Of a DNA stretch of 46,661 nt, positions 2,457 to 37,120 are shown piece after piece. Source of the stretch: an uncultured Bifidobacterium sp. (GTDB taxonomy: Bacteria > Verrucomicrobiota > Verrucomicrobiia > Limisphaerales > JADLHS01). The notes below the pieces were generated by a model that was not told the DNA's origin, made no database searches, and was given only the letters and a program-made list of their open reading frames with translations. Position 1 is the stretch's first letter, and every line of letters starts with the position of its first letter. Position numbers and translations under genes: made by a program. The DNA is taken from contig CAYSDO010000002.1 in the NCBI GenBank assembly GCA_964429665.1, positions 1 to 46,661 on the forward strand, given 5' to 3'.

Positions 2457-3647
2457 TTGTCATTCGTGACGCTTCGAGAGGGGGGCACGTCCGCCAGCAG
2501 AGTTCTTGAGCTTTGTAGAACAAGCGATTTGGAAATGGTTGGCAGCAACGTCATTCTAAATTCAGAAGGGTACCAGGTGCTCGGCCAGGAATTTTTAACT
2601 CTCAGGTTGGTGCGGCTCAAGTCCAACGAGGAATGGATCTCCAAGCGCGACGGCCTTTCTCTTTTGTTTCCAAAGACCGGGAACGGAAAATATGTCGCCG
2701 GATCCAGAACACATCGGCTTTCGCCGGGAGATGTGTTTGTTTTTAGCGAAGGAGACGGTCGCGAGAAATTGAGCGTTGCCAGTGGAACAGAAATCGTCTT
2801 TTGGTGCTTCTCATTGCGTCTCGAACATCTCTATCCCCTGTTCGCAGGCAATGAGATCTCACTGCTGGATGCGGTGGTTGAGGAGTTGAAGTCGCCAAAG
2901 CTTTTTCCGGCGCCCACCCCGCTGGCAAAACAGTGTCATCGGTTGATTGAAGACATTCCGTCCCAGCTCAACCTGGATCATCGCAGCCAGTTGCTCCGGA
3001 TCGCTGCCGCAATTTTATCGGAGGAATTCAGGATGGCACAGCACCGCCGGATCGGTGTTCAGGGAATCGAGGAACATACCATCAAGGTGTTCGAGAGCCT
3101 CTCCGGTGACGAACTCGTCGGGCTTTCAGTCGGGGATCTGGCCGCCAGGTTCGGCTGCAGCCGCCGGCATCTGAACCGTCTGTTTCACCAGTACTTCGGT
3201 TACTCGGTCGCGGCGCTGAAAATGGAGATGCGGTTGCTCAAGGCGGTCTCGTTGTTGCGCGACCGCAACATGAAGGTGATCCATGTGGCGGAACGTTGCG
3301 GTTTCAATCATCTCGGCCTGTTCAACACCTGCTTCAGGCGGCGCTTCAGCGTAAGCCCCGGTCAATGGCGAAAGCAGGTTGCTGCTGACGAAAACCCGCC
3401 CGTCCCTCTGGCGTCAAACCACACGGAATGTCCTCTCCATCCCAAGGGATTATGTCCATGGACTGGCCGCGCGGATTATTTTATTTCTGCGGCGGCAAAA
3501 GCTGCTTCGGCCCTAGGATCCGAAAAAAAGGGCTTCGCAAAGGCGTTGCCCCTGCCCAATCCGCAGTTGGAACAGCGGGTGATCCCTCTGCCTCACAAAA
3601 AACCAGCAGAACTCCAAACACCCGGCAGATCGCAGGCCCAGGGTTGA
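2457..3647 (+). CDS. AraC/XylS-family transcriptional regulator
   Basis: C-terminal double HTH: LSVGDLAARFGCSRRHLNRLFHQYFGYS ... VIHVAERCGFNHLGLFNTCFRRRFSVSPGQWR. Start uncertain (alternative ATG at 2535). Sits directly upstream of the export genes. Confidence 0.85.
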   Translation: MSFVTLREGGTSASRVLELCRTSDLEMVGSNVILNSEGYQVLGQEFLTLRLVRLKSNEEWISKRDGLSLLFPKTGNGKYVAGSRTHRLSPGDVFVFSEGDGREKLSVASGTEIVFWCFSLRLEHLYPLFAGNEISLLDAVVEELKSPKLFPAPTPLAKQCHRLIEDIPSQLNLDHRSQLLRIAAAILSEEFRMAQHRRIGVQGIEEHTIKVFESLSGDELVGLSVGDLAARFGCSRRHLNRLFHQYFGYSVAALKMEMRLLKAVSLLRDRNMKVIHVAERCGFNHLGLFNTCFRRRFSVSPGQWRKQVAADENPPVPLASNHTECPLHPKGLCPWTGRADYFISAAAKAASALGSEKKGFAKALPLPNPQLEQRVIPLPHKKPAELQTPGRSQAQG

Positions 3648-3662
3648 GTTCCCTCCAATTTT

Positions 3663-4991
3663 ATGATCCAATCTTCTCAATTGCTCATGTCTTCCCCGCC
3701 CGGGAGGTTGTTCGCTCGCACGGACTGTCACCATCATGCACCCGCTTTCAATGTCTCTGGCCTCTTGTGCCTGTCAGTTGTGTTCACCCTCCTCTCCGTT
3801 GACTGCCCGGCCGTGGAGGCCTTGAAAAACTCACTCGCCAACCAGCCGCAGAACCAGATCCAGTCCCCTTCACAGGCCGCTCTCCCCTACACTTTCAAAA
3901 GCGGTGATTTTCGTTTGCTGGCTACCCCTTCACTTGGCCTCGATTACAACGACAACGTCAGGAATTCAAAGTCGGACAAAGAGGATGATTTCATTCTCCG
4001 CCCCCTGCTCCAGCTCAACGCCACCCAGCCTCTGTCCCACCAGAATGTGATCAGTCTCAACCTCGGTATCGGCTACGACCAGTATTTCGACCACAACGAA
4101 CTGTGCGCCTTGCGGCTTCAGTCCGGCTCGGTCGTCTCGTTTGACCTGGTCGTGAAGGACGTCGCCTTCAACTTCCATGATCGAATGAGTTACACCCGGG
4201 ATTCATCACAGGAGGCCGCGGTTGCCAATACCTCTGACTTCGGCAATTTCGTGAACACCGCCGGCTTCTCCGTCTCCTGCTCTCTTCGCAAGGCAACCGT
4301 GTCCGCAGGTTACGACCACCAGAACGTCGTCTCCGGCAAATCCGCCTTCAACTCCCAGGACCACTCGTCTGAGATGTTTTTCGGCAGGATCGGGTTCGAG
4401 GTGAATCCTGAATTGCAGGCGGGCTTCGAGGCCACAACCGCCTTCACCACCTACGACCAGCCCACGCTCAATGACAATAATGTCAGTTCGGTCGGTCTCT
4501 TCGCCACATGGCAGCCGGGCAAGGCGTTCCGCATCTCCCCTCGGGGCGGCTGTTCCTTCACTCATTTCAAGAACACCAGCACAACATTGCAAACGGATGA
4601 TCTTGGCTCGTATTATCTGGACCTGACAATGACCCATGACATCACCGCTGCCTTCAGCTACGGACTCAGCGCCGGTCACGATGTCAGGCTGGGCATCCAG
4701 TCGGACGCCATCGAGGAGACCTATGTCCGTCCCAACGTCACATGGAGGGCGTTCAAGCACGCTTCCATCCAGTTCGGTTTCTCCTACGAGCACGGCAAAC
4801 AGGGCGCGGGAAGCGTGGGCGGCTTGACGGAGAATTATGACTGGTTTGGCGGCACCATCGGTACCAGTTGGTACATTCTCGACAAGCTCACCCTGGGACT
4901 CAATTACAGGCTCACCATTCGCTCCTCCGATGTTGCTGACCGCGGCTACACGCAGAACATGATCGGACTCCTCTTGACCTATCACATGTGA
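3663..4991 (+). CDS. predicted outer-membrane beta-barrel protein associated with polysaccharide export
   Basis: Signal-like N-terminus (LLCLSVVFTLLSVDCPAVEA). Alternating hydrophobic/polar strands rich in G/Y/S/T/N/D throughout. Terminal strand LNYRLTIRSS...GLLLTYHM. Stop overlaps the start of the OPX gene. Confidence 0.5.
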   Translation: MIQSSQLLMSSPPGRLFARTDCHHHAPAFNVSGLLCLSVVFTLLSVDCPAVEALKNSLANQPQNQIQSPSQAALPYTFKSGDFRLLATPSLGLDYNDNVRNSKSDKEDDFILRPLLQLNATQPLSHQNVISLNLGIGYDQYFDHNELCALRLQSGSVVSFDLVVKDVAFNFHDRMSYTRDSSQEAAVANTSDFGNFVNTAGFSVSCSLRKATVSAGYDHQNVVSGKSAFNSQDHSSEMFFGRIGFEVNPELQAGFEATTAFTTYDQPTLNDNNVSSVGLFATWQPGKAFRISPRGGCSFTHFKNTSTTLQTDDLGSYYLDLTMTHDITAAFSYGLSAGHDVRLGIQSDAIEETYVRPNVTWRAFKHASIQFGFSYEHGKQGAGSVGGLTENYDWFGGTIGTSWYILDKLTLGLNYRLTIRSSDVADRGYTQNMIGLLLTYHM

Positions 4992-6013
4992 TGACATCTG
5001 TTTTTCAGAAAAGGGTTCCGGGTTTTCGCAGATCCGCCGCTGGCGTTGCGGCCGCAATTGTGTTCTTGCTGGCCATTGCGCAGACACAGGGCCAGTCACA
5101 ACTGACCTATGAGGAATTGATGCGCCGCGCCCGCGGCCTTCCCGCCACCAACTCCACAATCAAGACCGCCACCAACTCTCCCGCCGTTTCGAGCACGCCA
5201 CCCAAGGTTGCTGTAGCTCCACCCGCAAAAATCACTCAACCCTCAACCCTCAACCCTCAGCCAAAATCAATCAACCCTCAACCCTCAACCCTCAACCAAA
5301 AACAATCAACCAACCCGCAACGCACCAGCACCAAAAAAACAAAAGGCCCGGTCTACTCCAATCCACCTCCCACCAACTCTGTCTCTTCAGCCCCGCTCCC
5401 GTCTCCTCCGGCTCAGACCCAGGACGCGCCGGTTGCGCAGCCGCTTGCCGGTGACTCAATCTCGACTAACGCCATGGAGTCCTTGGATGAAAAATATCGC
5501 CTCGCCATCGGCGACCGACTCAGCTTCCGCATCATCGAGGACGAGGAGGATCCAAAACCCCTGTTCGTCACGGACTCGGGAGAATTGGAGGTCCCATACG
5601 TCGGACGTTTCCGCGGGGTCGGCAAGACCTGCCGCGAACTCGCAAGGGCGCTGAAGGCGGAACTGGAAAAGGAGTATTACCACCGGGCCACGGTGATCAT
5701 TGCCGTGGATTTGATGGCCCGCAGTCGTGGCAAGATCTACTTCGCAGGGGCCGTCCGCATACCCAACCCCATTGACATGCCGGCCGATGAAACCCTCACC
5801 GTGAGCAAGGCGATCCTCCGCGCCGGCGGCTTTTCAGATTTTGCTGACAAGCGCAACGTCAAGGTCAACCGCAAGGCGGCCACTCCGGACGGGCAGGACA
5901 AGATCTTCAAAGTTAATGTCGAGGAGATCTTGGAAAAGGGAAAAACAGATTCGGATATGCCTCTGGAACCAGACGATTTGATCTACGTCCCTGAAAAACT
6001 GATCCGGTTTTAG
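4988..6013 (+). CDS. polysaccharide export protein, short OPX/Wza family (Poly_export + SLBB) with low-complexity N-terminal region
   Basis: YRLAIGDRLSFRI...LEVPYVGRFRGVGKTCRELARAL (Poly_export-like) then KIYFAGAVRIPN...ILRAGGFSDFADKRNVKV...PDDLIYVPE (SLBB-like). GTG 4988 or ATG 4991. Residues ~40-150 are P/T/S/N/Q-rich. Confidence 0.85.
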   Translation: MMTSVFQKRVPGFRRSAAGVAAAIVFLLAIAQTQGQSQLTYEELMRRARGLPATNSTIKTATNSPAVSSTPPKVAVAPPAKITQPSTLNPQPKSINPQPSTLNQKQSTNPQRTSTKKTKGPVYSNPPPTNSVSSAPLPSPPAQTQDAPVAQPLAGDSISTNAMESLDEKYRLAIGDRLSFRIIEDEEDPKPLFVTDSGELEVPYVGRFRGVGKTCRELARALKAELEKEYYHRATVIIAVDLMARSRGKIYFAGAVRIPNPIDMPADETLTVSKAILRAGGFSDFADKRNVKVNRKAATPDGQDKIFKVNVEEILEKGKTDSDMPLEPDDLIYVPEKLIRF

Positions 6014-6066: not shown

Positions 6067-8205
6067 GTGAGCGGACACTTGATTCCATCGCCAGACAACG
6101 AGTATCTGCCTCCACAGGAGGAGCAGCCCGCGGCGGCTTCGTTGTTCCAGTTGCAGCGCTACCTCGTCTTCCTGCGCAGGTGGTGGTGGATTCCGCTGGT
6201 GACTTTGCTCGTCGGTTCCGCTGTGGGCGTCGCGTTCGTTCTTTTGAAGGAACCAACCTTCGTTTCCAAGGGGCGGATGTGGGAGACCATGAAGCTCCGC
6301 CTTCCGGACAAAGAGATTTTTTCTGATGATAGCCAGAATTCCATCGGCACTCAAAGCGATGTATTTCAAAGCTCCGCGCTTCGCGAGCAGGCCTTGGCCC
6401 GCATGAAGGCTTCTACAAATTCTGCCCCCTTGATCGCATTGGACAAGGATCGCCAGCCGCTGCCCGTCCGTATCCGTGTCACCGGCTCCGCCAAAAGCTC
6501 GGTCTTCCTCATCGAAGCCAGCAGCGCCAACCCGCGTTACACCCAGGCCTACCTGGACGCCCTCATGGAGGCTTTTCTCGAAAACAGAAAAAACAATCGC
6601 AAGGAGATTTCCGGAGTCACCTTGGCTTCCATCTCCGAGCAGGTCCAGCGTTGGGAGAGGGACCTCAAGGCCGCCCAGGACGCCCTCAATGTGTTCCAAC
6701 AGACAAACAATCTGGCCATCCTCCAGGAGGAGGGCACCATCGCGGGCAGTTACCTGGTCAAACTCAAGATTCAGCTTTCGGATCTGCAATTGGAAATGCG
6801 CCTGCTCAACGCCAGCGTTCCCGCAACCAATCCTCCACCCATAATCGCAACGAATCCGGATGCCATTGCCCGGGATTCCTCGTCACCACCCAATCCAGCG
6901 CCCGCCTCCGCAGCTTCGGCGGAAACGCAGTCCAGTTTCAAGGAGGTCGAACTGCTCAAGATGCAACGCGCAAAGTTGAGCCAGTTCCTGCGTCCCAAAC
7001 ATCCCAAAATCGTCAAGCTGGACGCCGACATCGAGCGCGGACAAAAACTTCAGGAGATCTTCGGGCAGCAATCCCGGGATCAACTCGCCGCCGCGCGGAG
7101 AGACAACCAGTTGCGGATACAAAACGTGCTCGAAACCATAAGGGATTGGGAAACCAGGGTCATCGCCGCAAATGGCCGTATCGCAGAGGCCGAACGCCTC
7201 AAACTCAATATTCAACGTCTCCAGAGCGTTTATGACCGCTTGGAGCTTCTGGTCCAGAACGTCGGCTTCAGCCGGAATATTGATCAGGAATCCCTTTCCA
7301 TCCTCGAACCCGCCTCTCCGGTCGAACGCTCCTATACCAGGGAAATCAGCGGGCTCGCTCTCTCGGTGGTCTCAGGATTCGGTTTGGGCCTGGCTATCAT
7401 CGGCCTCATCTCATTCCGCGACGACCGTTTGCTCTCCGTCACCGAGGCAAACTCCAAACTCGGCGATTCCATCGTGGCCATGTTGCCGCAGATTGATTCT
7501 GCCAACGGAAAGGGCGACCTCACATTGCTCACCAATGATGATCCACGTCACATCTATGCCGAGGCCTATCGCAGCCTCCGTTCCGCCCTTCTCTTCCTGA
7601 CCCCGGAGAACGAACGGCCCAAGGTCATACTCATCACCAGCGCCACCCCCAACGAAGGCAAGTCCACCATCGCCGCAAATCTCGCGCGCATGCTGGCCCT
7701 CGGCGGCTCCCGGGTGCTCCTCGTGGACGCGGACCTTCGGAAAGGTCACCTCCACAAATTGCTCGAACTTGAAAGCGAACCCGGCCTCATCGAACTGCTC
7801 CACAAACAGAGTGAGCCCCAGGCGGTCATCCAGACCAATTCCCTCCACAATTTTTACTTTGTCGCACGCGGAAAATTTTCAGGCAACCCGGGCGATCTGT
7901 TTCTCGACTCGGCCCTCGAGCACATCCTCGCCCGCTGGCGGCAGGAATACGATTACGTCGTCATAGACAGCAGTCCCTTGTTCGCGGCGGATGACGCGAG
8001 CTGTCTGGCGGCCAAGGTGGACGGAACGCTTTTCGTCGTCCGGAATTATCACTCAAGCGCCCGCGCCGTGCGCGAAGCGCTGGACATCCTGGCCCGACGC
8101 CAGGCCCGCGTGCTTGGACTCGTTTACAACGGAGCCGACGCCTCGGCGCGCTCCTATAACTATTACAAATACCCGGACTATTACGCCACCAGCAAGGCAG
8201 TCTGA
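6067..8205 (+). CDS. polysaccharide co-polymerase (Wzz domain) fused to BY-type tyrosine autokinase (Wzc/EpsG/GumC-like)
   Basis: N-terminal TM plus a long coiled-coil periplasmic region, then a second TM. Walker A ATPNEGKSTIAANLA, A' VLLVDADLRKG, B YVVIDSSPL. C-terminal Tyr cluster SYNYYKYPDYY. GTG start. Confidence 0.9.
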   Translation: MSGHLIPSPDNEYLPPQEEQPAAASLFQLQRYLVFLRRWWWIPLVTLLVGSAVGVAFVLLKEPTFVSKGRMWETMKLRLPDKEIFSDDSQNSIGTQSDVFQSSALREQALARMKASTNSAPLIALDKDRQPLPVRIRVTGSAKSSVFLIEASSANPRYTQAYLDALMEAFLENRKNNRKEISGVTLASISEQVQRWERDLKAAQDALNVFQQTNNLAILQEEGTIAGSYLVKLKIQLSDLQLEMRLLNASVPATNPPPIIATNPDAIARDSSSPPNPAPASAASAETQSSFKEVELLKMQRAKLSQFLRPKHPKIVKLDADIERGQKLQEIFGQQSRDQLAAARRDNQLRIQNVLETIRDWETRVIAANGRIAEAERLKLNIQRLQSVYDRLELLVQNVGFSRNIDQESLSILEPASPVERSYTREISGLALSVVSGFGLGLAIIGLISFRDDRLLSVTEANSKLGDSIVAMLPQIDSANGKGDLTLLTNDDPRHIYAEAYRSLRSALLFLTPENERPKVILITSATPNEGKSTIAANLARMLALGGSRVLLVDADLRKGHLHKLLELESEPGLIELLHKQSEPQAVIQTNSLHNFYFVARGKFSGNPGDLFLDSALEHILARWRQEYDYVVIDSSPLFAADDASCLAAKVDGTLFVVRNYHSSARAVREALDILARRQARVLGLVYNGADASARSYNYYKYPDYYATSKAV

Positions 8206-8218
8206 ACAATGTAGCCAC

Positions 8219-8412
8219 CGTGGAGCGCCGGCCTCCGGCCCGGCCTGTTCCTGGTTCGGTGGAGCGCTGGCCTCCGGGCCGGCTGTTCCTGGTTTGGTAG
8301 TTTGGCGGTTTGACGGACTCGGTCGTCCTCTGGTGTTTGCTTGGTGTCGTTCGTGTGTTTTGTGGTCCAAAGCGCACAGTGGAGCGCCAGCCTCCGGGCC
8401 GGCCTGTAGTTG
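8219..8412 (+). repeat. three copies of a GC-rich palindromic unit GTGGAGCGCYGGCCTCCGGGCCGGC(C)TGT
   Basis: Copies at about 8219-8258, 8259-8297 and 8379-8412, starting 14 nt after the kinase stop. Each has an internal CCGGCC..GGCCGG stem. A related copy lies at 34673-34695. Confidence 0.8.
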
Positions 8413-8597: not shown

Positions 8598-8655
8598 GGG
8601 AAAAACAGAAAGTAGAAATTGGAAAAGCTGAAACTCTGAAAGCTGAAATCTACTC
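8598..8655 (-). repeat. mosaic repeat module in inverted orientation (GCTGAAA / AGAAAG)
   Basis: gggaaaaacagaaagtagaaattggaaaagctgaaactctgaaagctgaaatc is the reverse complement of the TTTCAGC + TTTCTAC modules. It is the only inverted copy seen in the window. Confidence 0.85.
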
Positions 8656-8690: not shown

Positions 8691-8789
8691 ACAGCCTTTC
8701 AGCCTTTCAGCCTTTCAGTTTGTCAGCCTTTCAGTATTTCAGTTTGTCAGCATTTCAGCGTGTCAGCATTTCAGTTTGTCAGCCTTTCA
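8691..8789 (+). repeat. mosaic repeat block B (TTTCAGC/GTCAGC modules incl. (CAGCCTTT)x3 at 8692-8715)
   Basis: cagcctttcagcctttcagcctttcagtttgtcagcctttcagtatttcagtttgtcagcatttcagcgtgtcagcatttcagtttgtcagcctttcac. Confidence 0.9.
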
Positions 8790-8802
8790 CAATCTAATAA
8801 AA

Positions 8803-9165
8803 ATGAGGCTGTCTGAAGAATTGAGGCGACGAACGAAGCGATACGCATCGGCGACGATTCAGCTGTATGTGAAGCTGCCCCGCGGGCGCAAAGAAGTTGA
8901 AGTGCTCGGTCACCAATTATTGCGCTCCGGCACGTCCGTTGCCGCCCATGCCAGAGAGGCATCCCGCGCACGCTCAGACAGCGAGTTTTGCTCGAAATTG
9001 GACGGACTACTTCAAGAAGCGGACGAATCCGGGCTCTGGTTGGAATTGCTGCGGGATGATTGTGCGATCGAAGGTGAAAACCTCGATCACTTGGTGCGCG
9101 AAACCGACGAACTGCTCGCCATCTTCACCACCATGGTTGCAAAACTCCGCAAGCGCGCCGCTTAA
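8803..9165 (+). CDS. four-helix-bundle protein (23S rRNA intervening-sequence protein / Avd-like family)
   Basis: MRLSEELRRRTKRYASATIQLYVKLPRGRKEVEVLGHQLLRSGTSVAAHAREASRARSDSEFCSKL..EADESGLWLELL matches the characteristic pattern of this family. The track ORF starts at 8776 on a repeat-borne ATG; ATG 8803 is preferred. Confidence 0.8.
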   Translation: MRLSEELRRRTKRYASATIQLYVKLPRGRKEVEVLGHQLLRSGTSVAAHAREASRARSDSEFCSKLDGLLQEADESGLWLELLRDDCAIEGENLDHLVRETDELLAIFTTMVAKLRKRAA

Positions 9166-9216
9166 TTTCAGATTGCCAGCCTTTCAGCGTTTCAGCCTTT
9201 CAGCGTTTCAGCCTTT
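9166..9216 (+). repeat. mosaic repeat block C: (CAGCSTTT)x5 ending 6 nt before the exosortase ATG
   Basis: Octamers at 9177, 9185, 9193, 9201 and 9209 (alternating CAGCCTTT/CAGCGTTT); ATG at 9223. Confidence 0.9.
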
Positions 9217-9222
9217 AACGTA

Positions 9223-11145
9223 ATGTCCGTCTTCCGTCAATTGGCCCTTCCCCTCGCCCTCTTCTCCATCCTCTGGGTGGATCTCTGCCGTCAGCTCAGC
9301 TACACATGGGACACCAACGAACAATACGCCTATGGTTGGTTCGTTCCATTGCTCGCCCTCGGCCTGTTCATTCGCCGCTGGCCCACCCGCCCATCCCCCC
9401 AACCCACAGCATTTCAAGGTTTCAGCGTTCCAGTATCTGCCTTGACCGCTTCCCCAATTTCAGCGTTTCAGCGTTTCAGCATTTCAGCATTTGTCTTCCT
9501 GCTTTGCCTTTTACTGCTCCCCCTCCGCGTCATCATTGAGATCAACCCGGATTGGCCGCTCATCACCTGGCCCTACACACTCATCGTCGTCGCCCTCACA
9601 CTCTACGCCATCCACCTCGCCGGTCCGAGGTCTTCACCCCGTGAGATGTCCGGACCGGCTATCTCACCGGGGTCAGCGTTTCGCCGTTTCATTTCTGTTT
9701 TCAACTTTCTCAATTTCCGCTTTTCCCCTCGTCCTCCGTCCTCCGTTGTCGGTGGTCCATCACCCGAGTCTCCTAACCCTATTTCTGCTTTCTACTTTCA
9801 TAATTTCCGCTTTTTCAAGCTCTCCCCTTGGGTGGCCCACTTCGCCTTCCCCGTATGCTTCATCTTGGTCGCCGTCCAATGGCCCTACCGGATCGAGCAC
9901 GGCCTCACCCAGAACCTCATGCAGATCGTCGCCTCCCTCACCGTCGAGATCATCGGCTGGTGCGGCATACCCGCAATCCAGCAGGGCAACCTGATCGAAC
10001 TGAGCACAGGTGTCCTCGGCGTGGACGAAGCCTGCAGCGGCATCCGCTCCTTTCAATCCACGTTGATGGCCGCACTATTCCTTGGCGAACTATATCTGCT
10101 TCGTGTCCCGATCCGGTTGTTGCTCGTCGTGGCTGGCCTGGGCGCAGCCTTCCTGTTAAACGTCTGCCGCACACTTATCCTCACTTGGCAGGCAAATGCG
10201 CACGGACTGTCGGCAATTGACAAATGGCACGACCCGGCCGGCTTCACCATCGCCATCGCCTGCTTCGGCGTCCTCTGGCTCCTCGCCATCCTCATCAAGA
10301 AGCGCTGGCCCGTTCCTGATCCTCAACCATCCTCGTCCGACATTGATCCGTCGTCCTCGGCCCGTGAGATGGCCACTCGGCCCGCGGAATCAGTTCGATA
10401 TTCCACCGGGTCGCCTATCTCACCGGGGCAGCTTTCTGCTTTCCCAATTTCTGCTCTCTGCTTTCACCCCTGCCGCCATTACCTCCTTATTATTTCCTGC
10501 TGGGTTGTATTCGTGGTCCTGGGTAATCAAATATGGTACGGGATGCATGCGCGAAAAGTGGATGCTTCGCTCCGGTGGTCCGCCATGCTTCCCTCCAAAA
10601 AAAGCACCTACAAAGAACTGACCCTCACTCCAAAGGAACTGGCAGCACTAAAGTGCGACACTAGACAAGGTGGTTCATGGAGGGAGGCTGATGACACGCA
10701 ATGGGCAGTCTGGTTCTTTCGGTGGGATTCCCAGTCCCTGCTTTCACTGGTGGCTGCCCGTTGCCATCGCCCGGAAGTTTGCTTGCCTGCAAGCGGACGC
10801 AAGATGAAGGCCGATCACGGCCTTCGTTGGTACAAAGCGGGTGATCTTAGTCTTCCATTTCGCACTTACGAATTCGATAACGGCGATCAACCGCTGTATG
10901 TCTTCTTCTGCCTCTGGCAGGATGGCACCGAGCAGTTGCCGGTTAAGGACAACCTTGCCTTGGCGGGCCGACTGTGGGCCGCATTCAACGGCAGGCGAGC
11001 TCTCGGCCAGCAAAGTCTGGAAATCATCATCAGCGGCGACTCCTCTTTTGATGCTGCAGAGCAAGCCGTGCGCGAGCGTCTGCCGGGGTTGATTCGGATT
11101 GAACCGCCTGCTCCACTGCGGCAAAGTGCTGTGAACTCCCGATAA
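9223..11145 (+). CDS. exosortase (EpsH/Xrt family) fused to a C-terminal EpsI-like domain; carries three repeat-derived in-frame segments
   Basis: LSYTWDTNEQYAYGWFVP (N-terminal motif), GVDEACSGIRS (catalytic Cys), NVCRTLILTW (Arg) and KWHDPAGF (His). The C-terminal ~200 aa contain CHRPEVCLPASG, resembling the EpsI HxPxxCLPGxGW motif. Confidence 0.85.
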   Translation: MSVFRQLALPLALFSILWVDLCRQLSYTWDTNEQYAYGWFVPLLALGLFIRRWPTRPSPQPTAFQGFSVPVSALTASPISAFQRFSISAFVFLLCLLLLPLRVIIEINPDWPLITWPYTLIVVALTLYAIHLAGPRSSPREMSGPAISPGSAFRRFISVFNFLNFRFSPRPPSSVVGGPSPESPNPISAFYFHNFRFFKLSPWVAHFAFPVCFILVAVQWPYRIEHGLTQNLMQIVASLTVEIIGWCGIPAIQQGNLIELSTGVLGVDEACSGIRSFQSTLMAALFLGELYLLRVPIRLLLVVAGLGAAFLLNVCRTLILTWQANAHGLSAIDKWHDPAGFTIAIACFGVLWLLAILIKKRWPVPDPQPSSSDIDPSSSAREMATRPAESVRYSTGSPISPGQLSAFPISALCFHPCRHYLLIISCWVVFVVLGNQIWYGMHARKVDASLRWSAMLPSKKSTYKELTLTPKELAALKCDTRQGGSWREADDTQWAVWFFRWDSQSLLSLVAARCHRPEVCLPASGRKMKADHGLRWYKAGDLSLPFRTYEFDNGDQPLYVFFCLWQDGTEQLPVKDNLALAGRLWAAFNGRRALGQQSLEIIISGDSSFDAAEQAVRERLPGLIRIEPPAPLRQSAVNSR

Positions 11146-30555: not shown

Positions 30556-31030
30556 CCCTGCTTTCTGTTTTCTGCTTTCTATTTTCTCAATTTCTGTTTT
30601 GTAATGTCAGGTTTCAGAATCTCAGCCTTTTAGCTTTTCAGCATGTCAGCTTTTGTTTGGTCGTCCGTCGTCCGTCGTCCGTTGTCCGTGGACCTTGGCC
30701 CGTGAAGTCCTGTCCCTCTACTTCACTGGGTCCGGCCCGTGAAGTCCTGTCCCTCTACTTCACTGGGTCCGGCCCGTGAAGTGTGCCGTTTTACTTCACC
30801 GGCCTGCTTTCCATATTTCTGTTTTGAAATGTCAGCGTGTCACCTTGTCAGCATTTCAGAATCTGGCGTGTCCCGTAGTCCGTAGTCAGTTGTCCGTGGT
30901 CCCGATTTCTACTTTCTGTTTTCCTAATTTCTCTTTTGTTTTGGTCCGTAGTCAGTAGTCAGTAGTCATTTCTAATTTCTGCTTTCCCAATTTCAGATTT
31001 TTAGTTTGTCAGCATTTCAGCTTTTGCTTT
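30556..31030 (+). repeat. mosaic repeat block E (largest contiguous block; all four module types)
   Basis: Begins 1 nt after the GT stop and ends at the GTG start of the next gene. Order: ctgctttctgttttctgctttctattttctc.. / ..tttcagaatctcagcc..cagcatgtcagc / gtcgtccgtcgtccgtcgtccgttgtccgtgg / three hairpins / further TTTCTGY, GTCAG and GTAGTCA runs. Confidence 0.95.
30697..30804 (+). repeat. triple tandem of the hairpin module (two exact 37-nt copies plus one loop variant)
   Basis: ggcccgtgaagtcctgtccctctacttcactgggtcc at 30697-30733 and 30734-30770; ggcccgtgaagtgtgccgttttacttcaccggcc at 30771-30804. Confidence 0.95.
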
Positions 31031-32424: not shown

Positions 32425-32871
32425 ATGAATCAACCCACCGAAGATTTGAAATTGATTCACGGCGGACAACACTCCGACGCTCGCGGCTCCATTGCTTTCG
32501 TGAATGGATTCAATTTCAAGGGTGTGGACCGCTTCTACTGGATCACAGCGGAGGCGACAAACACACAACGCGGCTGGGTGGGCCATCGCCGGGAGCAAAA
32601 ATGGTTTACCGTACCCCAGGGAGAAGTGCTGATTGCAGCAGTCAAACCGGATGATTGGGAGCGACCGGATAGGAATCTGCCCGTGGCAAGGTATCTTCTT
32701 TCTGCAACCCAACCGCAGGTGCTTCATGTGCCGCCGGGCTACGCGACGGCCAGCGTGAACCTACACCCCCACGCGGTGCTCATGGTCTTTTCCTCAGGCA
32801 GAATTGAAGACGCCAAAACTGACGACTTTAGATTCCCGCTGGATCATTGGCCAATTCAGGCTGCCCCCTGA
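32425..32871 (+). CDS. WxcM/FdtA-like cupin (putative NDP-4-keto-6-deoxyhexose 3,4-isomerase)
   Basis: HSDARGSIAFVNGFNFKGVDRFYWITAEATNTQRGWVGHRREQKWFTVPQGEVLIA...LHVPPGYATA fits the D.RG...R.f....RG.H.H cupin pattern of this family. Confidence 0.65.
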   Translation: MNQPTEDLKLIHGGQHSDARGSIAFVNGFNFKGVDRFYWITAEATNTQRGWVGHRREQKWFTVPQGEVLIAAVKPDDWERPDRNLPVARYLLSATQPQVLHVPPGYATASVNLHPHAVLMVFSSGRIEDAKTDDFRFPLDHWPIQAAP

Positions 32872-33412
32872 TTTCTGCTTTCTGTTTTCTAAATGTTAGC
32901 ATTTGTATTGAGACCGCAATTCAGGTTTCAGAATCTCAGCCTTTCAGCATTTGTTTTTGGCCGCTTTCTACTTTCTGCTTTCTTGATTTCTGTTTTGCAA
33001 TGTCAGCCTGTCAGGATTTCAGCATTTCAGATTTTTGCTTCTTGCTTTGTAGTCCGTGGACCTTGGCCTGTGAAGTCTGCCGTTTACCGCTTCATTGGGC
33101 TGTTCTCCCACTTTCAGCTTTTCAGTATGTCAGCATTTCAGCTTTTTCGATTTTTGCTTCGTAGTCAGTGGTCAGTTGTCCGTGGTCCCAATTTCAGCTT
33201 TCTGCTTTCTTAATTTCTGTTTTGCAATGTCAGCCTGTCAGGATTTCAGCTTTTCAGCGCTTCAGCTTTTTGCTTTATGGTCCGTTGTCCTTATTTCTGC
33301 TTTCTGCTTTCCCAATTTCTGTTTTGAAATGTCAGCGTGTCAGCCTGTCAGGATTTCAGCTTTTCAGCATTTGTTTTTGGCCGCTTTCTCCCTTCCCAAT
33401 TTCTAATTTTGC
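32869..33412 (+). repeat. mosaic repeat block G (~540 bp; starts on the TGA of the preceding gene)
   Basis: Repeated units of gatttctgctttctgttttc / gtttcagaatctcagcctttcagc / ttgcaatgtcagcctgtcaggatttcagc (three near-identical copies at about 32995, 33225 and 33330) / gtagtccgtgg / hairpin 33065-33100. Confidence 0.95.
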
Positions 33413-33477
33413 ATTGGACCGCCATTGTCCTACCCTCAATGTTAATTTCGACGTCAAAAATAAATGAAAGGATCAAT

Positions 33478-33888
33478 ATGACCGACATCGAAACTCAGCA
33501 GCGCTTCGTCTTCCTCCGCTCTCAGGGCTGGAGCTTTGCCCGCATCTCCGAGGACCTCAAGGTCTCCAAACCCACGCTCATCAACTGGAGCCGCAAATTC
33601 CAGTTCGACATCCAGAACCAGCGCGCCATCAACATCGAGGCCCTCCAGGAAAAATGGCTCTCCACGCGCGATGTCCGCGTCAACGCCCTCGGTGAAAATC
33701 TCCGCAAGGTCGAGGCCGAACTCGCAAAGCGCGATCTCACCACCGTGCCTACGCGCCAGTTGTTCAGTCTGGCCGGCTCGTTGCGCCGCGAGATCAAACA
33801 CGAAACGGGGACCTTGCAATTCACATCACCCATTTCCCAGATCCCCAACGATGAATACCACGAACAAGTCCAGGACTGGAACCCTTGA
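33478..33888 (+). CDS. small HTH-domain protein (function unknown) followed by a coiled-coil segment
   Basis: AAGGA lies 6-10 nt upstream of ATG 33478. FVFLRSQGWSFARISEDLKVSKPTLINWSRKF is a canonical HTH, then ...LRKVEAELAKRDL. The track ORF 33337.. starts on a repeat-borne ATG. Confidence 0.6.
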   Translation: MTDIETQQRFVFLRSQGWSFARISEDLKVSKPTLINWSRKFQFDIQNQRAINIEALQEKWLSTRDVRVNALGENLRKVEAELAKRDLTTVPTRQLFSLAGSLRREIKHETGTLQFTSPISQIPNDEYHEQVQDWNP

Positions 33889-33985
33889 GGCGTGCGCTCC
33901 GATGGTAGGGCGTGTCGCGCTGCGACCGCCTTCCCTGGCGCATGTCTGCCGTTCGAGAATTTCGGCATTTGGATGTTGGGTATTT

Positions 33986-34306
33986 GGTCGTCCCATCGTC
34001 CCCAATTTCCCCATGTCAGATTTTCAGTATGTCAGTATGTCAGCATTTGTTTGGTCGTCCCATCGTCCGTGGTCCATGGTCATTTCGTATTTCTGCTTTC
34101 TTTATTTCTGTTTTGCAATGTCAGTTTGTCAGCCTTTCAGCCTTTCAGCATTTGTTTTTGACCGCTTTCTACTTTCCTTGGCCCGTGAAGTCCTGTCCCT
34201 TACTTCACCAGGCTGCTTTCCCAATTTCAGTTTGTCAGCCTTTCAGCCTTTTGCTTTCTGCTTTCTGCTTTCCCAATTTCTGTTTTGAGACAAATGTCAG
34301 CTTTTT
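33986..34306 (+). repeat. mosaic repeat block H
   Basis: ggtcgtcccatcgtcccc / atgtcagattttcagtatgtcagtatgtcagc / ggtcgtcccatcgtccgtggtcc / atttctgctttctttatttctgttttgcaatgtcag / cagcctttcagcctttcagc / hairpin 34180-34213 / ctttctgctttctgctttcccaatttctg. Confidence 0.95.
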
Positions 34307-34314
34307 AGAATGCA

Positions 34315-34584
34315 ATGCGTAACCTGACCCACAATCTTAGCCGCAATGCGACCCGGTACACCACGCGCATGATCGGCGGCCTCCGACGCCCGCCCCAGCC
34401 GGACTATTTGGGCATCGCCTGCCGCGCCTTCGAAAAAGTCTATGAGATTGATCGGCGGCTTCAGCCCTACATCCAGGAACAGATCCGCCTGCAGAAGCAA
34501 CGCGCTTTCGAAGCACAGATTGATGCCGCCCTCGACCGCGTTTACGGCCCGGAAACGAAGCAACCAGATGCTGGTCCGCAGTAG
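34315..34584 (+). CDS. hypothetical small protein (89 aa)
   Basis: ORF lies in unique, non-repeat sequence between two repeat blocks and has an ordinary amino-acid composition (..ACRAFEKVYEIDRRLQPYIQEQIRLQKQRAFEAQIDAALDRVYG..). No recognisable family. Confidence 0.35.
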   Translation: MRNLTHNLSRNATRYTTRMIGGLRRPPQPDYLGIACRAFEKVYEIDRRLQPYIQEQIRLQKQRAFEAQIDAALDRVYGPETKQPDAGPQ

Positions 34585-34823
34585 GTCCCGTTCCCTTTTC
34601 CGCATCCAATGGGAAGAGATTCATCAGATCCCGATTTGCGCCATTAACCCATGAACCGGGGCGCTATGCCTGGGAGCGCTGGCGTCCCGCCGGCGAGTTG
34701 CACTCGGGCCAACAGTCCCGGACCGCGGGCGGTCCCTCGCCCGCAGCGCACCCACCGCTTTCAACCGGCAGGGATTCGTCAAAGTCGCCACAGATGAGCG
34801 ATGATAAGCGCAGATTAGTGGTT

Positions 34824-34983
34824 CAATTTCAGCTTTTGCTTGGTAGTCCGTGGTCAGATGTCCATGGTCATTTTGGATTTCTACTCTCTGCTTTTGATAT
34901 TTCTACTTTTGTTTGGTCGTCCCGTTGTCCGTTGTCCGTGGTCCCAATTTCAGCTTTCTGCTTTCCCAATTTCTGTTTTGTTT
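34824..34983 (+). repeat. mosaic repeat block I-1
   Basis: caatttcagcttttgcttggtagtccgtggtcagatgtccatggtc...atttctactctctgc...ggtcgtcccgttgtccgttgtccgtggtcccaatttcagctttctgctttcccaatttctgttttg. Confidence 0.9.
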
Positions 34984-35076
34984 AGAAAATCGAATCCGGT
35001 AAAGAAATGGTAAACAAACGGTAAAGTTTTCCCCCAATCCCGGACCTCTCAATCTTAATCCCAATCACGCTGGCTG

Positions 35077-35212
35077 GATTTCAGCTTTTCAGCATGTCAG
35101 CATTTCAGCTTTTGTTTGGTCGTCCGTTGTCCATTGTCCGTAGTCCGTCGTCCGTGGTCCCAATTTCTACTTTCTGCTTTCTCAATTTCTGGTTTTCAGT
35201 ATCTCAGCGTTT
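35077..35212 (+). repeat. mosaic repeat block I-2, ending 6 nt before the DUF218 ATG
   Basis: gatttcagcttttcagcatgtcagcatttcagcttttgtttggtcgtccgttgtccattgtccgtagtccgtcgtccgtggtcccaatttctactttctgctttctcaatttctgg. Confidence 0.9.
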
Positions 35213-35217
35213 AACTG

Positions 35218-36000
35218 ATGTCCTTCCTCTACTCCATTCTCCTTAAGCTGCTCTATCCCACCTCGCTTTGCGTCCTCCTGCTCCTGGCGGCAGCGGTCTT
35301 TCGCAAGCGCCAGAAGGCACGCCGCATCTGTTTCAGTCTCGCTATCCTCATCCTGCTCGTCTGCGGCAATGGCTGGGTGGTAAAATATTCCACGCGTTAT
35401 CTGGAATCGCAGTATCCACCTCTGCCCTCGGGCAGTTCAGTTGCTGCCGATTGCATCCTGGTGCTGGGTGGCGGCACTTCCGAAAAGATTCCCCCACGAC
35501 CAACCGTCGAGGTGGGTGAAGCCGGTGACCGCGTCCTCTACGCGGCGCACCTCTTCCGCGCTGGGAATGCACCAAGTATCCTCTGCACGTCAGGGATAGC
35601 AACGGGTGGCAACGGCCCGCGGCCCGCCGCGAATAACATGGCAGAATTGCTTCGGGACCTAGGTGTGCCTGAAAGCGCAATCATCCGGGAAACCGCCTCC
35701 CGCAACACGCACGAGCACGGGGACAACCTGCTTCCAATGCTGAAGCAAAAGGGGATCAAGCGCATGATTCTGGTAACCTCCGCCGCGCACATGCCCCGCT
35801 CAATGGGTGTGTTCAAAAAATCCTGTCCCGGCATCGAGTTCATCCCCGCACCCACGGATTTCCGCATCGTCGAACTCGATTTGCCGTGGTATAGGCAACT
35901 CGTCAACCTGATCCCCACACCCGGCAACCTCGTCCAGTTCTCAGAGACAATGCACGAATATCTCGGCATGGCCTATTATCGGCTCAGAGGCTGGCTATAG
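35218..36000 (+). CDS. YdcF/ElyC-like DUF218 protein (envelope/polysaccharide-related)
   Basis: Two N-terminal TM segments. ADCILVLGGG...APSILCTSG...MILVTSAAHMPRSMGVFKK matches the DUF218 core pattern. Confidence 0.85.
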   Translation: MSFLYSILLKLLYPTSLCVLLLLAAAVFRKRQKARRICFSLAILILLVCGNGWVVKYSTRYLESQYPPLPSGSSVAADCILVLGGGTSEKIPPRPTVEVGEAGDRVLYAAHLFRAGNAPSILCTSGIATGGNGPRPAANNMAELLRDLGVPESAIIRETASRNTHEHGDNLLPMLKQKGIKRMILVTSAAHMPRSMGVFKKSCPGIEFIPAPTDFRIVELDLPWYRQLVNLIPTPGNLVQFSETMHEYLGMAYYRLRGWL

Positions 36001-36050
36001 TCACAATCCATCGCTTACTCCTGCTCTTAACCTGGTACCCTGTCGTGGCG

Positions 36051-36332
36051 CTGTTTTCCAAATTTCAGATTCTCCGCCTTTGCTTCTTTGCCCCGTGGTC
36101 AGTGGTCATTTCTGCTCTCTGCTTTTCCAATTTTTTGATCCGTGGTCAACAGCCAGATTTCTGCTTTCTACTTTCCCGATTTCAGATTTTCAGTTTGTCA
36201 GCATTTCAGCTTTTGTTTTGTCGTCCCGTCGTCCGTCGTCGTTAGTCCGTTGTCATTTCTACTTTCTGTTTTCCCAATTTCTGTTTTGAAATGTCAGTTT
36301 GTCTGCTTTTCAGCATTTGTTTTTGGCCGCTT
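36051..36332 (+). repeat. mosaic repeat block J
   Basis: ctgttttccaaatttcagattc...ccgtggtcagtggtcatttctgctctctgc...gatttctgctttctactttcccgatttcagattttcagtttgtcagcatttcagc...gtcgtcccgtcgtccgtcgtcg...atttctactttctgttttcccaatttctgttttgaaatgtcag. Confidence 0.9.
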
Positions 36333-36794
36333 TTGAAATCTCTATCCCAAACCTGTCTCCGCTTCGTTCTGGCCCTCTACACCGGCCTGCTCTTGTACGT
36401 CACCCTTTGGCCGTTCCAGTTCACCTCCCATCCCGGACGCAACACAACAAACCTCAAGAGACATGTCGAATGGATTCCTTTCACAAGGTTGTGCCCGAAC
36501 CACGGCCTCTTCTGCCCGCGCGACACCGGTTTGAACCTCGCAATGTTCCTCCCCTTCGGCGCCTTGGTAGCCTTGATGTCTTCAGCTGAGATTGGCCGGA
36601 TGCGCCGCGTTGTTCGCGCTGCCGCCTTGGGTTTCAGCCTCAGTTTGCTGATCGAGACTACACAGTATTTCATACCCGTCCGTTATCCCAGCACCACCGA
36701 CCTCTTGTTGAACACGTTGGGTGCGGGTCTGGGCGGGCTCGTCGTTTTCACCACTTCCAAAACCAGGCCATTGAAAATGCCGCATCAACCATAA
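36291..36794 (+). CDS. VanZ-family membrane protein
   Basis: LLYVTLWPFQF...WIPFTRL...NLAMFLPFGALVAL...SLLIETTQYFIPVRYPSTTDLLLNTLGAGLGGLV. ATG 36291 is repeat-borne (aaATGTCAG module), so the real start may be the in-frame TTG at 36333 (MKSLSQTCLRF..). Confidence 0.8.
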   Translation: MSVCLLFSICFWPLLKSLSQTCLRFVLALYTGLLLYVTLWPFQFTSHPGRNTTNLKRHVEWIPFTRLCPNHGLFCPRDTGLNLAMFLPFGALVALMSSAEIGRMRRVVRAAALGFSLSLLIETTQYFIPVRYPSTTDLLLNTLGAGLGGLVVFTTSKTRPLKMPHQP

Positions 36795-36799
36795 GGTGT

Positions 36800-37120
36800 T
36801 TGATGTTTTGGAGCTTTGAGTTTGGTATTTGCTGTTTAGTTTTTGCAGTTCGGGATTTGGTGTTTGGTGTTTTGCCAGTCCGTGGTCCGTGGTCGCGTAG
36901 TCCGTGGTCCCAGTTTCTGCTCTCTGCTTTTCATATTTCTGCTTTTGCTTGCTAGTCCCGTTGTCCGTGGTCATTTTGTTTTTCTACTCTTTGCTTTTGT
37001 TATTTCAGATTTTCAGCATGTCAGCATTTCAGCATTTGCTCTGTTGTCCGTGGTCCCGATTTCTACTTTCTGCTTTCCATATTTCAGATTTTCAGTTTGT
37101 CAGCCTTTCAGCTTTTGCCT
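36800..37120 (+). repeat. mosaic repeat block K (GT-rich TTTGGTG leader, then GTCCGTGG, TTTCTGY and TTTCAGC modules)
   Basis: ggtgtttgatgttttggagctttgagtttggtatttgc...gtccgtggtccgtggtcgcgtagtccgtggtccc...atttctgcttttgc...atttcagattttcagcatgtcagcatttcagc...gatttctactttctgctttcc...cagtttgtcagcctttcagc. Confidence 0.9.

Follow-up and report, generated by a model that had tools for sequence, protein, structure and literature searches.

Modular 7/8-nt repeats and hairpins, probably absorbed in frame at three sites of a Limisphaerales exosortase gene

Rickettsia palindromic elements (RPEs) are discrete palindromes of about 100-150 bp, each family of which has a conserved peptide (Ogata et al. 2000, summarised in PMC10969869, PMC3733652). 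For repetitive extragenic palindromes (REPs), Di Nocera et al. (2013, PMC3733652) counted more intragenic GTAG repeats in Opitutus terrae, a verrucomicrobium, than in any other genome of their study. Intragenic REPs lie wholly within open reading frames (ORFs) as single copies, dimers or clusters, encode 20-82 amino acids (up to 82 in Thauera and R. conorii), may differ between orthologous genes at one site, and are read as neutral inserts in linkers or loops (PMC3733652). The heptanucleotide TAACTGA repeats of Beggiatoaceae, cyanobacteria and Bacteroidetes carry stops in every forward frame and are rarely internal to ORFs (PMC4679880). Here we analyse a stretch of 46,661 nt (contig CAYSDO010000002.1, hereafter the window) from a soil or freshwater Verrucomicrobium belonging to the Verrucomicrobiota, Limisphaerales or close kin, in which an exosortase gene (9223..11145, + strand) carries in frame three segments that match the short tandem repeats and hairpins of the surrounding intergenic DNA. 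We read these segments as selfish or slippage-prone repeats that were absorbed in frame and sifted by selection, much as RPEs and intragenic REPs are, and give this reading a probability of roughly 0.8.

The modules of the window are mainly intergenic and comprise tandem 8-mers (TTTCAGCN), tandem 7-mers (TTTCTGC, GTCCGTG/GTCGTCC, CTCAACC and others) and hairpins of about 33-45 nt that contain a bulge, their stems being conserved and their loops variable. The hairpin pattern CCGTGAR-loop-YTCACYGG occurs in five copies in the window versus 0.01 expected. Two subtypes can be told apart, with GAGAT stems in the two hairpins inside the exosortase gene and GAAGT or GAAAT stems in the intergenic hairpins of the window; the flanks are TTCAC at site 2, CTCGG at site 3 and TTGG/CCGG at the intergenic copies. 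When each segment was compared by blastn with the window, the ORF being masked, segment 1 gave 88 matches outside the ORF (best 95% over 40 nt, E 5e-14, to 2063-2102), segment 2 gave 48 (best 87-100% over 19-31 nt, E 5e-5, with intergenic arrays at 30569, 30666, 33187, 33292 and 36157) and segment 3 gave 46 (best 100% over 25 nt, E 9e-9, to 34951-34975), more than 94% of the matches being on the same strand. A 60-nt sliding scan over the whole ORF (E<=0.01) confined the matches to scan starts 9403-9463, 9673-9763 and 10333-10423, plus one stray at 10993. The segments also differ in composition from the rest of the ORF (T 0.28-0.38 and G 0.17-0.24 versus T 0.23 and G 0.25).

An earlier note on this DNA, made from the letters alone, had claimed that three stretches of the exosortase ORF are nucleotide-level copies of intergenic modules. 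The ORF at 9223-11145 is real, the three translations quoted for the stretches are exact, and the masked search bears out the nucleotide-level matches, which are essentially confined to them and greatly exceed what chance would give. All three locations stand, whereas the extents needed correction, since the whole insert at site 2 spans 9625-9828 and the repeat-derived DNA of site 3 already begins near 10345, where a GTCGTCC remnant lies.

Each insert is a mosaic of modules. Insert 1 (9406..9495, + strand; residues 62-91, TAFQGFSVPVSALTASPISAFQRFSISAFV) is made up of degenerate 8-mers (9408-9452) followed by a CCCAATTTC junction and then a TTTCAGCN array of 4.5 copies (9453-9494), within which Tandem Repeats Finder (TRF) reports 9457-9492 with period 8 and 92% matches. 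The array continues into the start of a transmembrane (TM) helix at residues 81-107. Insert 2 (9625..9828, + strand; residues 135-202, 68 amino acids) replaces an ancestral G-W-x and is a composite of several modules. Its hairpin element (9632..9674, + strand) consists of a TTCAC tag, CCCGTGAGAT, a 13-nt loop GTCCGGACCGGCT and ATCTCACCGGGG, the 3' arm having a bulged C; it is translated as SPREMSGPAISPG and has a predicted fold of -23.2 kcal/mol (z -4.0). There follow a remnant of a TTTCAGCG 8-mer array (tcagcgtttcgccgtttc; 9673..9690, + strand), seen in a codon alignment with P0002 (contig L081), the closest orthologue, and a nested block (9691..9815, + strand) of T-rich 7-mers (9691-9726), CGTCCTC/GTCC-type 7-mers (9727-9760, with a TRF call at 9730-9746), a spacer and more T-rich 7-mers (9777-9815). 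P0002 has the hairpin and a continuing 8-mer array at site 2 without the ~120-nt block that is nested there in the window, indicating that modules were added inside existing modules. Within the block, 9691-9724 and 9781-9814 form a direct duplication of 34 nt (88% identical) at a spacing of 90 nt, or 30 codons, and the duplication was therefore internal and in frame.

Insert 3 (10345..10467, + strand; residues 375-415) comprises the GTCGTCC remnant, nested hairpins and a TTTCTGC-type array (10429-10467) that adjoins the TM helix of residues 415-442. An outer GAGAT hairpin (10361-10426) holds a paralogous inner GGAAT hairpin (10381-10413) in its loop, both starting with CTCGGCCCG, and the nested structure has a predicted fold of -34.4 kcal/mol (z -3.3). 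Orthologue P0009 has the same nested hairpin at site 3. We found no transposase, though none of the Y1 type was looked for in the window, and at the insert boundaries no terminal inverted repeats (TIRs) or target-site duplications; the hairpins and arrays are internal only.

Judged against orthologues, the three segments are insertions. Across 80 species-representative loci, nearly all labelled Verrucomicrobiota and many of them Limisphaerales or subdivision 3, the loop at site 1 has a baseline of ~20-21 amino acids (40 in the window), the loop at site 2 is exactly three amino acids (G-W-x) in 67 of the 80 (68 in the window), and the loop at site 3 has a baseline of ~25-28 amino acids (65 in the window). 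Loci with denser 7/8-nt tandem repeats in their flanks had longer summed loops (Spearman 0.56, p 7e-8, 80 loci), and loci without such repeats have baseline loops. The earlier note had reasoned that homologous peptides at the same positions in repeat-free genomes would speak against insertion; orthologues from repeat-poor genomes have no such peptides at the three sites. Its proposal that the net inserted lengths preserve the frame agrees with a 640-codon ORF that stays open through ~400 nt of repeat-derived DNA, and 79 of the 80 orthologue ORFs are in frame as well. The exception is the orthologue in L058, a repeat-rich metagenome-assembled genome (MAG), which is frameshifted exactly at site 2 (LAMAERGPW / KGPLVCTLVFP, ~6330-6360) at a GGGGCCC run. 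This shift could be a long-read sequencing error, a pseudogene or an off-phase variant.

The gene that bears these insertions has an ATG start and an intact ORF of 640 amino acids, and encodes an EpsH-type, 8-TM exosortase fused to a C-terminal periplasmic domain that is putatively EpsI/DUF3485-like. In profile searches the window protein scored above the curated thresholds of both PF09721 (Exosortase_EpsH, 118.8 bits versus a gathering score of 25.7) and the TIGR04178 exosortase/archaeosortase signature (45.3 bits versus a cut-off of 23), which places it in the family. Like exosortases of the EpsH/XrtA type it has an 8-TM core, Cys/Arg/His motifs and a setting in an extracellular polysaccharide (EPS) locus, and its C-terminal fusion, if EpsI-like, would recall the long XrtD/XrtW-type models. 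It differs in falling below the NCBIfam cut-off of every named Xrt subfamily (XrtD 81.2 versus 400, XrtA 80.2 versus 208, XrtW 57.9 versus 425) and in being ~120 amino acids longer than repeat-free orthologues. The C-terminal ~200 amino acids scored 18.0 bits against PF11984 (EpsI/DUF3485; gathering score 26.1), an annotation that is precomputed on several orthologues, and a fold search with the model of this domain gave weak PsbP/DcrB-like matches with an alpha/beta fold.

Evidence for a working enzyme comes from conserved residues and substitution rates. An alignment of 33 orthologues shows no variation at the catalytic residues C271 (DEACSG), R316 (NVCR) and H336 (WHD). The five family motifs that the earlier note had placed in the frame of ATG 9223 are all at the coordinates it gave (W29 at 9307, D268 at 10024, C315-R316 at 10165, W335 at 10225 and H515 at 10765). 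Compared with four relatives, the core has a synonymous divergence (dS) of ~1.4-2.0 and a ratio of nonsynonymous to synonymous rates (omega) of 0.18-0.27, and omega falls to 0.08 in the catalytic domain (residues 203-352) against the closest relative. Omega values of 0.08-0.22 at a dS of ~1-1.5 were also obtained with the four relatives. On these substitution patterns the gene is functional and under purifying selection, with the enzyme core kept. The earlier note had also allowed for an untranslated pseudogene; the intact ORF, the low omega and the invariant catalytic residues tell against it.

The inserts coincide with the least confident parts of the modelled protein. In an AlphaFold2 model built from an alignment of 33 sequences (mean confidence score, pLDDT, 72), pLDDT dropped below 50 at residues 63-78, 137-198 and 373-413, which correspond to the three inserts and are flanked by confident helices. 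None of the inserts contains an extra 19-residue hydrophobic window, and the predicted count of TM helices therefore stays the same. The even-numbered loops (51-84, 134-201, 291-294 and 359-417) are rich in K/R, poor in D/E and assigned to the cytoplasm; the others (28-35, 104-112, 218-271 and 321-339) are acidic, carry the catalytic Cys with the His nearby, and are assigned to the periplasm. Topology was taken from charges because a sequence search for a solved structure found none and the C-terminal domain gave only weak fold matches. All three sites would then be cytoplasmic, two of them loops between TM helices and the third the linker before the last TM helix and the EpsI-like domain. Exosortases act on exported PEP-CTERM proteins, with which this topology is consistent. 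As had been proposed, the segments separate modelled TM helices or occupy the linker that precedes the periplasmic domain. They are not loops throughout, however. In the model, helix 81-107 begins within the 3' part of segment 1 (ISAFQRFSISAF...) and the 3' end of segment 3 leads into helix 415-442, such that both ends help to encode the modelled TM helices that follow.

The same three sites are used repeatedly. In 120 orthologue clusters they hold varied repeat modules in either orientation, and the peptides found there can be read back to their units: FLLSAFC to TTTCTGC x3, FQxFSxSA to TTTCAGCN x3, VRGPWSV to GTCCGTG x3 and LNPQPST to CTCAACC x3, while units in reverse orientation give charged peptides (AESRKQK, TTDHGPR). 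Forward T-rich units yield F/L/S/A/C-rich strings. The hairpin encodes SPREM..ISPG, and among the orthologues the same hairpin type is also read in its other open frame as PVK..YFTG. Of the 120 clusters, 37 have an insert at site 2, and a rough neighbour-joining (NJ) tree requires 23 or more changes of state there. Five orthologues have a (TTTCTGC)x4 array, perfect or nearly so, that encodes FLLSAFCFLL, the N-terminal half of the TM helix after site 1, where repeat-free orthologues have an unrelated FWLVALVVV... sequence. An AAG/CTT-type hairpin lies reversed inside the exosortase ORF of P0005 (contig L204, ORF 3001-4881, hairpin at 3817 on the minus strand), which indicates that hairpins are tolerated in either orientation within the gene.

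Hairpins within ORFs use only the two TGA-free frames and never the TGA frame. The core 7/8-nt units are open in all three forward frames, and the reverse complement of the 8-mer contains TGA. Over 3,058 nt of intergenic arrays we counted 52 forward stop triplets, compared with 92 +/- 7 in shuffles and 181 on the reverse strand, the leftover forward stops (TGA/TAA/TAG) being located in hairpins, junction motifs and unit variants. The earlier description of the elements as stop-free in all three forward frames is thus right for the core units and wrong for the segments, each of which has one frame bearing TGA or TAA.

Beyond the window, the hairpins form a wider family whose stems covary (AAG/CTT, AGA/TCT, GAA/TTC, AAA/TTT): all bases pair in 29 of 40 triplets, where shuffling of partners leaves 9.7 (maximum 17). 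Throughout ~1 Mb of Verrucomicrobia loci, all GAGAT-type hairpins found lie inside exosortase ORFs. At least 120 stretches of metagenome DNA carry the stems CCCGTGAGAT...ATCTCACCGGG unchanged. Among the matches listed, a 5' TTyAC tag and a 3' GCC are common, ~5% of the hairpins lie deep within long ORFs (two being exosortases), and the contigs range from 0.32 to 0.62 GC with almost none carrying T-rich arrays; the hairpin is often embedded in other heptamer arrays (AAACCAG-like, TCTGTCG-like; contigs L083-L202). Some hairpin loops among these matches hold TTTCAGC or CCAATTTTCTGC. Apart from one tRNA, no Rfam family matched the window or 20 hairpin-bearing metagenome contigs. A reading of the in-gene hairpins as terminators or attenuators was unsupported by a consensus scan, and they are not terminator-like. 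We tentatively suggest, while leaning against it for now, that the 7/8-nt arrays and tagged hairpins make up a single, hitherto undescribed repeat system that is not limited to this lineage, is readable as protein, keeps adding protein sequence to genes (half of a TM helix included), has copies that are either homogenised or mobilised or else functional as nucleic acid, and has the exosortase gene as a preferred recurrent target.

Compared with the described systems, the inserts resemble RPEs in being lineage-specific repeats that lie in frame in functional, unrelated genes, several per gene, and add peptides compatible with the fold. They differ in being mosaics of 7/8-nt arrays and 33-75-nt hairpins that occur in either orientation and grow by accretion, and their host belongs to the Limisphaerales rather than to Rickettsia, to which the description of RPEs refers. 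The parallel with RPEs drawn in the earlier note therefore holds for how the inserts work (in-frame insertion, a functional gene, tolerated positions) and does not extend to the element itself, a palindrome of ~100-150 bp from Rickettsia. With the GTAG/CGTC super-families of REPs the hairpins share a short, bulged, imperfect palindrome (20-40 nt), a high copy number and a mostly extragenic distribution with some intragenic copies at shared sites. Membership in these super-families was rejected, as no GTAG or CGTC tag stands beside the stem (the flanks being TTCAC, CTCGG, TTGG/CCGG and, among the matches listed, TTyAC), and the window hairpins further differ in being embedded in 7/8-mer arrays that supply most of the inserted length.

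The arrays have their own nearest relatives, the cyanobacterial heptanucleotide direct repeats (STRRs) that Mazel et al. reportedly described in 1990, together with the TAACTGA repeats. The likeness lies in related tandem 7-nt units that are overwhelmingly intergenic, in an occurrence within ORFs that is ruled by stop-free orientation, and in indels in steps of 7 nt. However, the units of the window (TTTCTGC, GTCCGTG/GTCGTCC, CTCAACC and the 8-mer TTTCAGCN) are none of the described sequences, and its core units are forward-open and recur within genuine genes, where they even supply part of a TM helix. Small non-autonomous repeats able to fuse in frame are also known as miniature inverted-repeat transposable elements, or MITEs (ERIC, BOX and Anabaena MITEs; PMC10969869); membership was rejected here because no TIRs or target-site duplications bound the inserts and their architecture is modular and tandem. 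The literature that we could search, which is only part of the whole, does not describe such repeats for Verrucomicrobia, Limisphaerales or Pedosphaera, nor their in-frame Limisphaerales copies. The type of event is already known; its present form, with modular repeats as loops and as part of a TM helix, is not.

For the origin of the inserts we favor a route in which modular repeats found across the lineage enter or expand in coding DNA, here at three permissive places of the exosortase gene. Rather than by transposition, entry and growth would proceed by slippage or by recombination or gene conversion, for which the genome offers many homologous arrays. Purifying selection would then act as the filter, such that survivors have a net length that is a multiple of three, a stop-free orientation and frame, and a tolerant position. 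Once in place the inserts would grow by accretion, nesting and duplication, as suggested by the hairpin within a hairpin loop, the ~120-nt block within an 8-mer array and the 90-nt in-frame duplication. The products are predicted to be disordered loops, with the forward array beside a membrane helix co-opted as part of that helix, and the inserts are probably neutral passengers for the enzyme. Of all this, the analysis itself shows that the segments derive from repeats and were inserted, where in the protein they lie, that the gene is intact and constrained, and that such insertion recurs.

Several points weigh against this account. The translation of the inserts is predicted from sequence only, the cytoplasmic topology depends on the positive-inside rule, and neither a transposase nor TIRs or target-site duplications were found that would reveal the mechanism of entry. 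More pointedly, the site-2 hairpin block is identical in 19 of 20 codons between the window and P0002, when the most conserved domain reaches 53% and synonymous sites are saturated (dS ~1-1.4 in the gene), and the TM-coding (TTTCTGC)n arrays are identical between species at 26-29 of 30 nt, when third codon positions are 44-59% identical. Purely tolerated junk does not explain this conservation of hairpins and arrays, which must imply that other copies convert or re-enter the gene, that arrays are homogenised internally, or that the nucleic acid itself is under selection. If the latter, the in-gene modules, or if not all of them then the GAGAT hairpin and the perfect 7-mer arrays, would be kept as a structure of the RNA or DNA to which a protein binds, which modulates translation or mRNA stability, or which sets the pace of co-translational membrane insertion, any of which is compatible with an origin by insertion. 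In addition to the two identities just given, such a function would fit the 33-nt site-2 hairpin that is identical, loop included, in P0002 and P0005, the covariation of the stems, and the finding of GAGAT hairpins only inside exosortase ORFs. However, most orthologues do without inserts and insert content turns over freely, the hairpins match no Rfam family and do not look like terminators, and gene conversion or repeated insertion of a mobile master copy could produce equal conservation; the three species with the identical hairpin are not mutual closest relatives on a rough NJ tree. We consider a nucleic-acid function rather unlikely on this evidence.

The remaining explanations fare worse. 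Unit lengths that are no multiple of three would allow the arrays to make exosortase a phase-variable contingency gene that switches PEP-CTERM sorting and EPS by frame shift, and the 4.5-copy 8-mer array (9457-9492, 92% matches) within the ORF, the perfect (TTTCTGC)x4 arrays in the ORFs of relatives and the L058 frameshift at site 2 all point that way. Yet the arrays are imperfect and of few copies, the two P0002 contigs (L081 and L082, the only duplicates) are 100% identical, the L058 shift sits at a G/C homopolymer of a long-read MAG, outside the arrays, where a sequencing error is possible, and the other 79 orthologues are in frame, leaving phase variation improbable. Loops and linkers of membrane proteins are commonly variable and low in complexity, and the hydrophobic strings read from forward arrays are at home in a membrane protein, so the inserts might be ordinary linkers selected as protein whose likeness to intergenic DNA is coincidence or codon bias. 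This is effectively refuted, and we hold it very improbable, for it is the DNA that matches the non-coding arrays (100% over 25 nt and 95% over 40 nt at best), reversed units in orthologues yield unrelated peptides, the stems are palindromic and covary, and loop length tracks the genomic repeat load. Slimmer still is the chance that the gene is a decaying pseudogene or that the inserts are repeat-made assembly chimeras. Repeats do provoke misassembly and the window protein is a database singleton (one member, one contig); against this stand the ORF that is intact across its repeat-derived DNA, the catalytic-domain omega and the same hairpins at the same sites in independently assembled orthologues (JGI, ENA, NCBI). 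The pseudogene half of this explanation is rejected because omega is low and Cys271, Arg316 and His336 are invariant. Absorption in frame under purifying selection remains the reading we prefer.

Exosortase is not the only gene concerned. An in-frame (CTCAACC)n array (5228..5311, + strand) lies inside a Wza-like export gene (4988..6013) of the window, upstream of the Poly_export and SLBB domains, and is translated as QPSTLNPQP; the L004 orthologue of this gene has (TTTCTGC)n instead, translated as FLLSAFCFL. Other in-frame arrays in the fetched loci are found in another Wza-like gene, two GT4 glycosyltransferases, a carbamoyltransferase and a DUF218 protein. In these other genes the arrays are flanked by Pfam domains, the one in the carbamoyltransferase lying between the N and C domains. 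The polysaccharide locus around the exosortase comprises the Wza-like exporter, a chain-length/P-loop (tyrosine) kinase, GNATs, a DegT aminotransferase, a flippase and glycosyltransferases.

Directly upstream of the exosortase start codon is an intergenic 8-mer array (9165..9216, + strand), preceded by a small 23S_rRNA_IVP-like gene for a four-helix bundle (8776..9165). Upstream of that gene is a further intergenic array of 12 copies of the CAGCCTTT-type 8-mer (8692..8792, + strand), which served as a reference copy, so that 8-mer arrays stand on either side of it. The same family occurs just upstream of exosortase in L081 and L204 (there additionally annotated bAvd), and small GIY-YIG genes are close by in L081 and L203; both kinds of gene may be cassettes, either carried along by the arrays or inserting into them. 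A GC-rich repeat of ~39 nt (GGAGCGCCGGCCTCCGGCCCGGC...), unlike the others, separates the kinase gene from the arrays; it occurs in three copies, one of them followed by GTAG (8220-8410), and is crossed by long spurious ORFs on both strands.

The largest arrays show how the modules are combined. One intergenic array (30558..31030, + strand), used as the reference for module order, runs from TTTCTGC 7-mers through 8-mers, GTCGTCC 7-mers, three tandem GAAGT hairpins (30697-30802, period 37 nt), 7-mers and 8-mers to GTCCGTA 7-mers. Another (32870..33404, + strand), also intergenic and the source of several top matches to segments 2 and 3, has a higher-order unit of 102 nt in which GTCC 7-mers and TTTCTGC 7-mers are followed by 8-mers (33178-33372, 1.9 copies). 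All T-rich arrays of the window are on the + strand (for example 1794-2128, 30558-31030 and 32870-37118) except one (8601-8650). Their uniform orientation possibly reflects the replication strand or local duplication. Relative to both neighbouring genes, the T-rich strand was co-oriented in 22 cases and anti-oriented in 11 over 85 loci; transcription-coupled orientation was dropped, as a codirectional excess of only ~2:1 makes no firm rule. Forward-open arrays create or lengthen the ORFs 33536..34288, 33337..33888 and 36291..36794, one of which is 250 amino acids long and chiefly repeat translation, and N-termini such as MSVCLLFSICF are likewise made of repeats.

For verrucomicrobial MAGs such repeats are an annotation hazard, producing spurious long ORFs, inflated protein lengths and depressed profile scores; in our profile search the N-terminal half of the window exosortase was missed by most family models. 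Beyond what the earlier note had described, the orthologue comparison adds recurrent hot spots in a large orthologue family, a tandem heptanucleotide array coding for part of a TM helix, and inserted modules conserved at the nucleotide level across species. This strong conservation of hairpins and arrays makes it testable whether the modules are junk, mobile or functional. If they do belong to one repeat system, either homogenising or mobilising machinery or a nucleic-acid function would be at work within coding regions, and exosortase would be a preferred target and no accident. As we read the locus, non-coding repeats have given a bacterial membrane enzyme protein sequence de novo, as loops of up to 68 amino acids and as part of a TM helix, with purifying selection kept throughout. 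The dozens of variants at the three sites amount to a natural experiment on which insertions a polytopic membrane protein tolerates.

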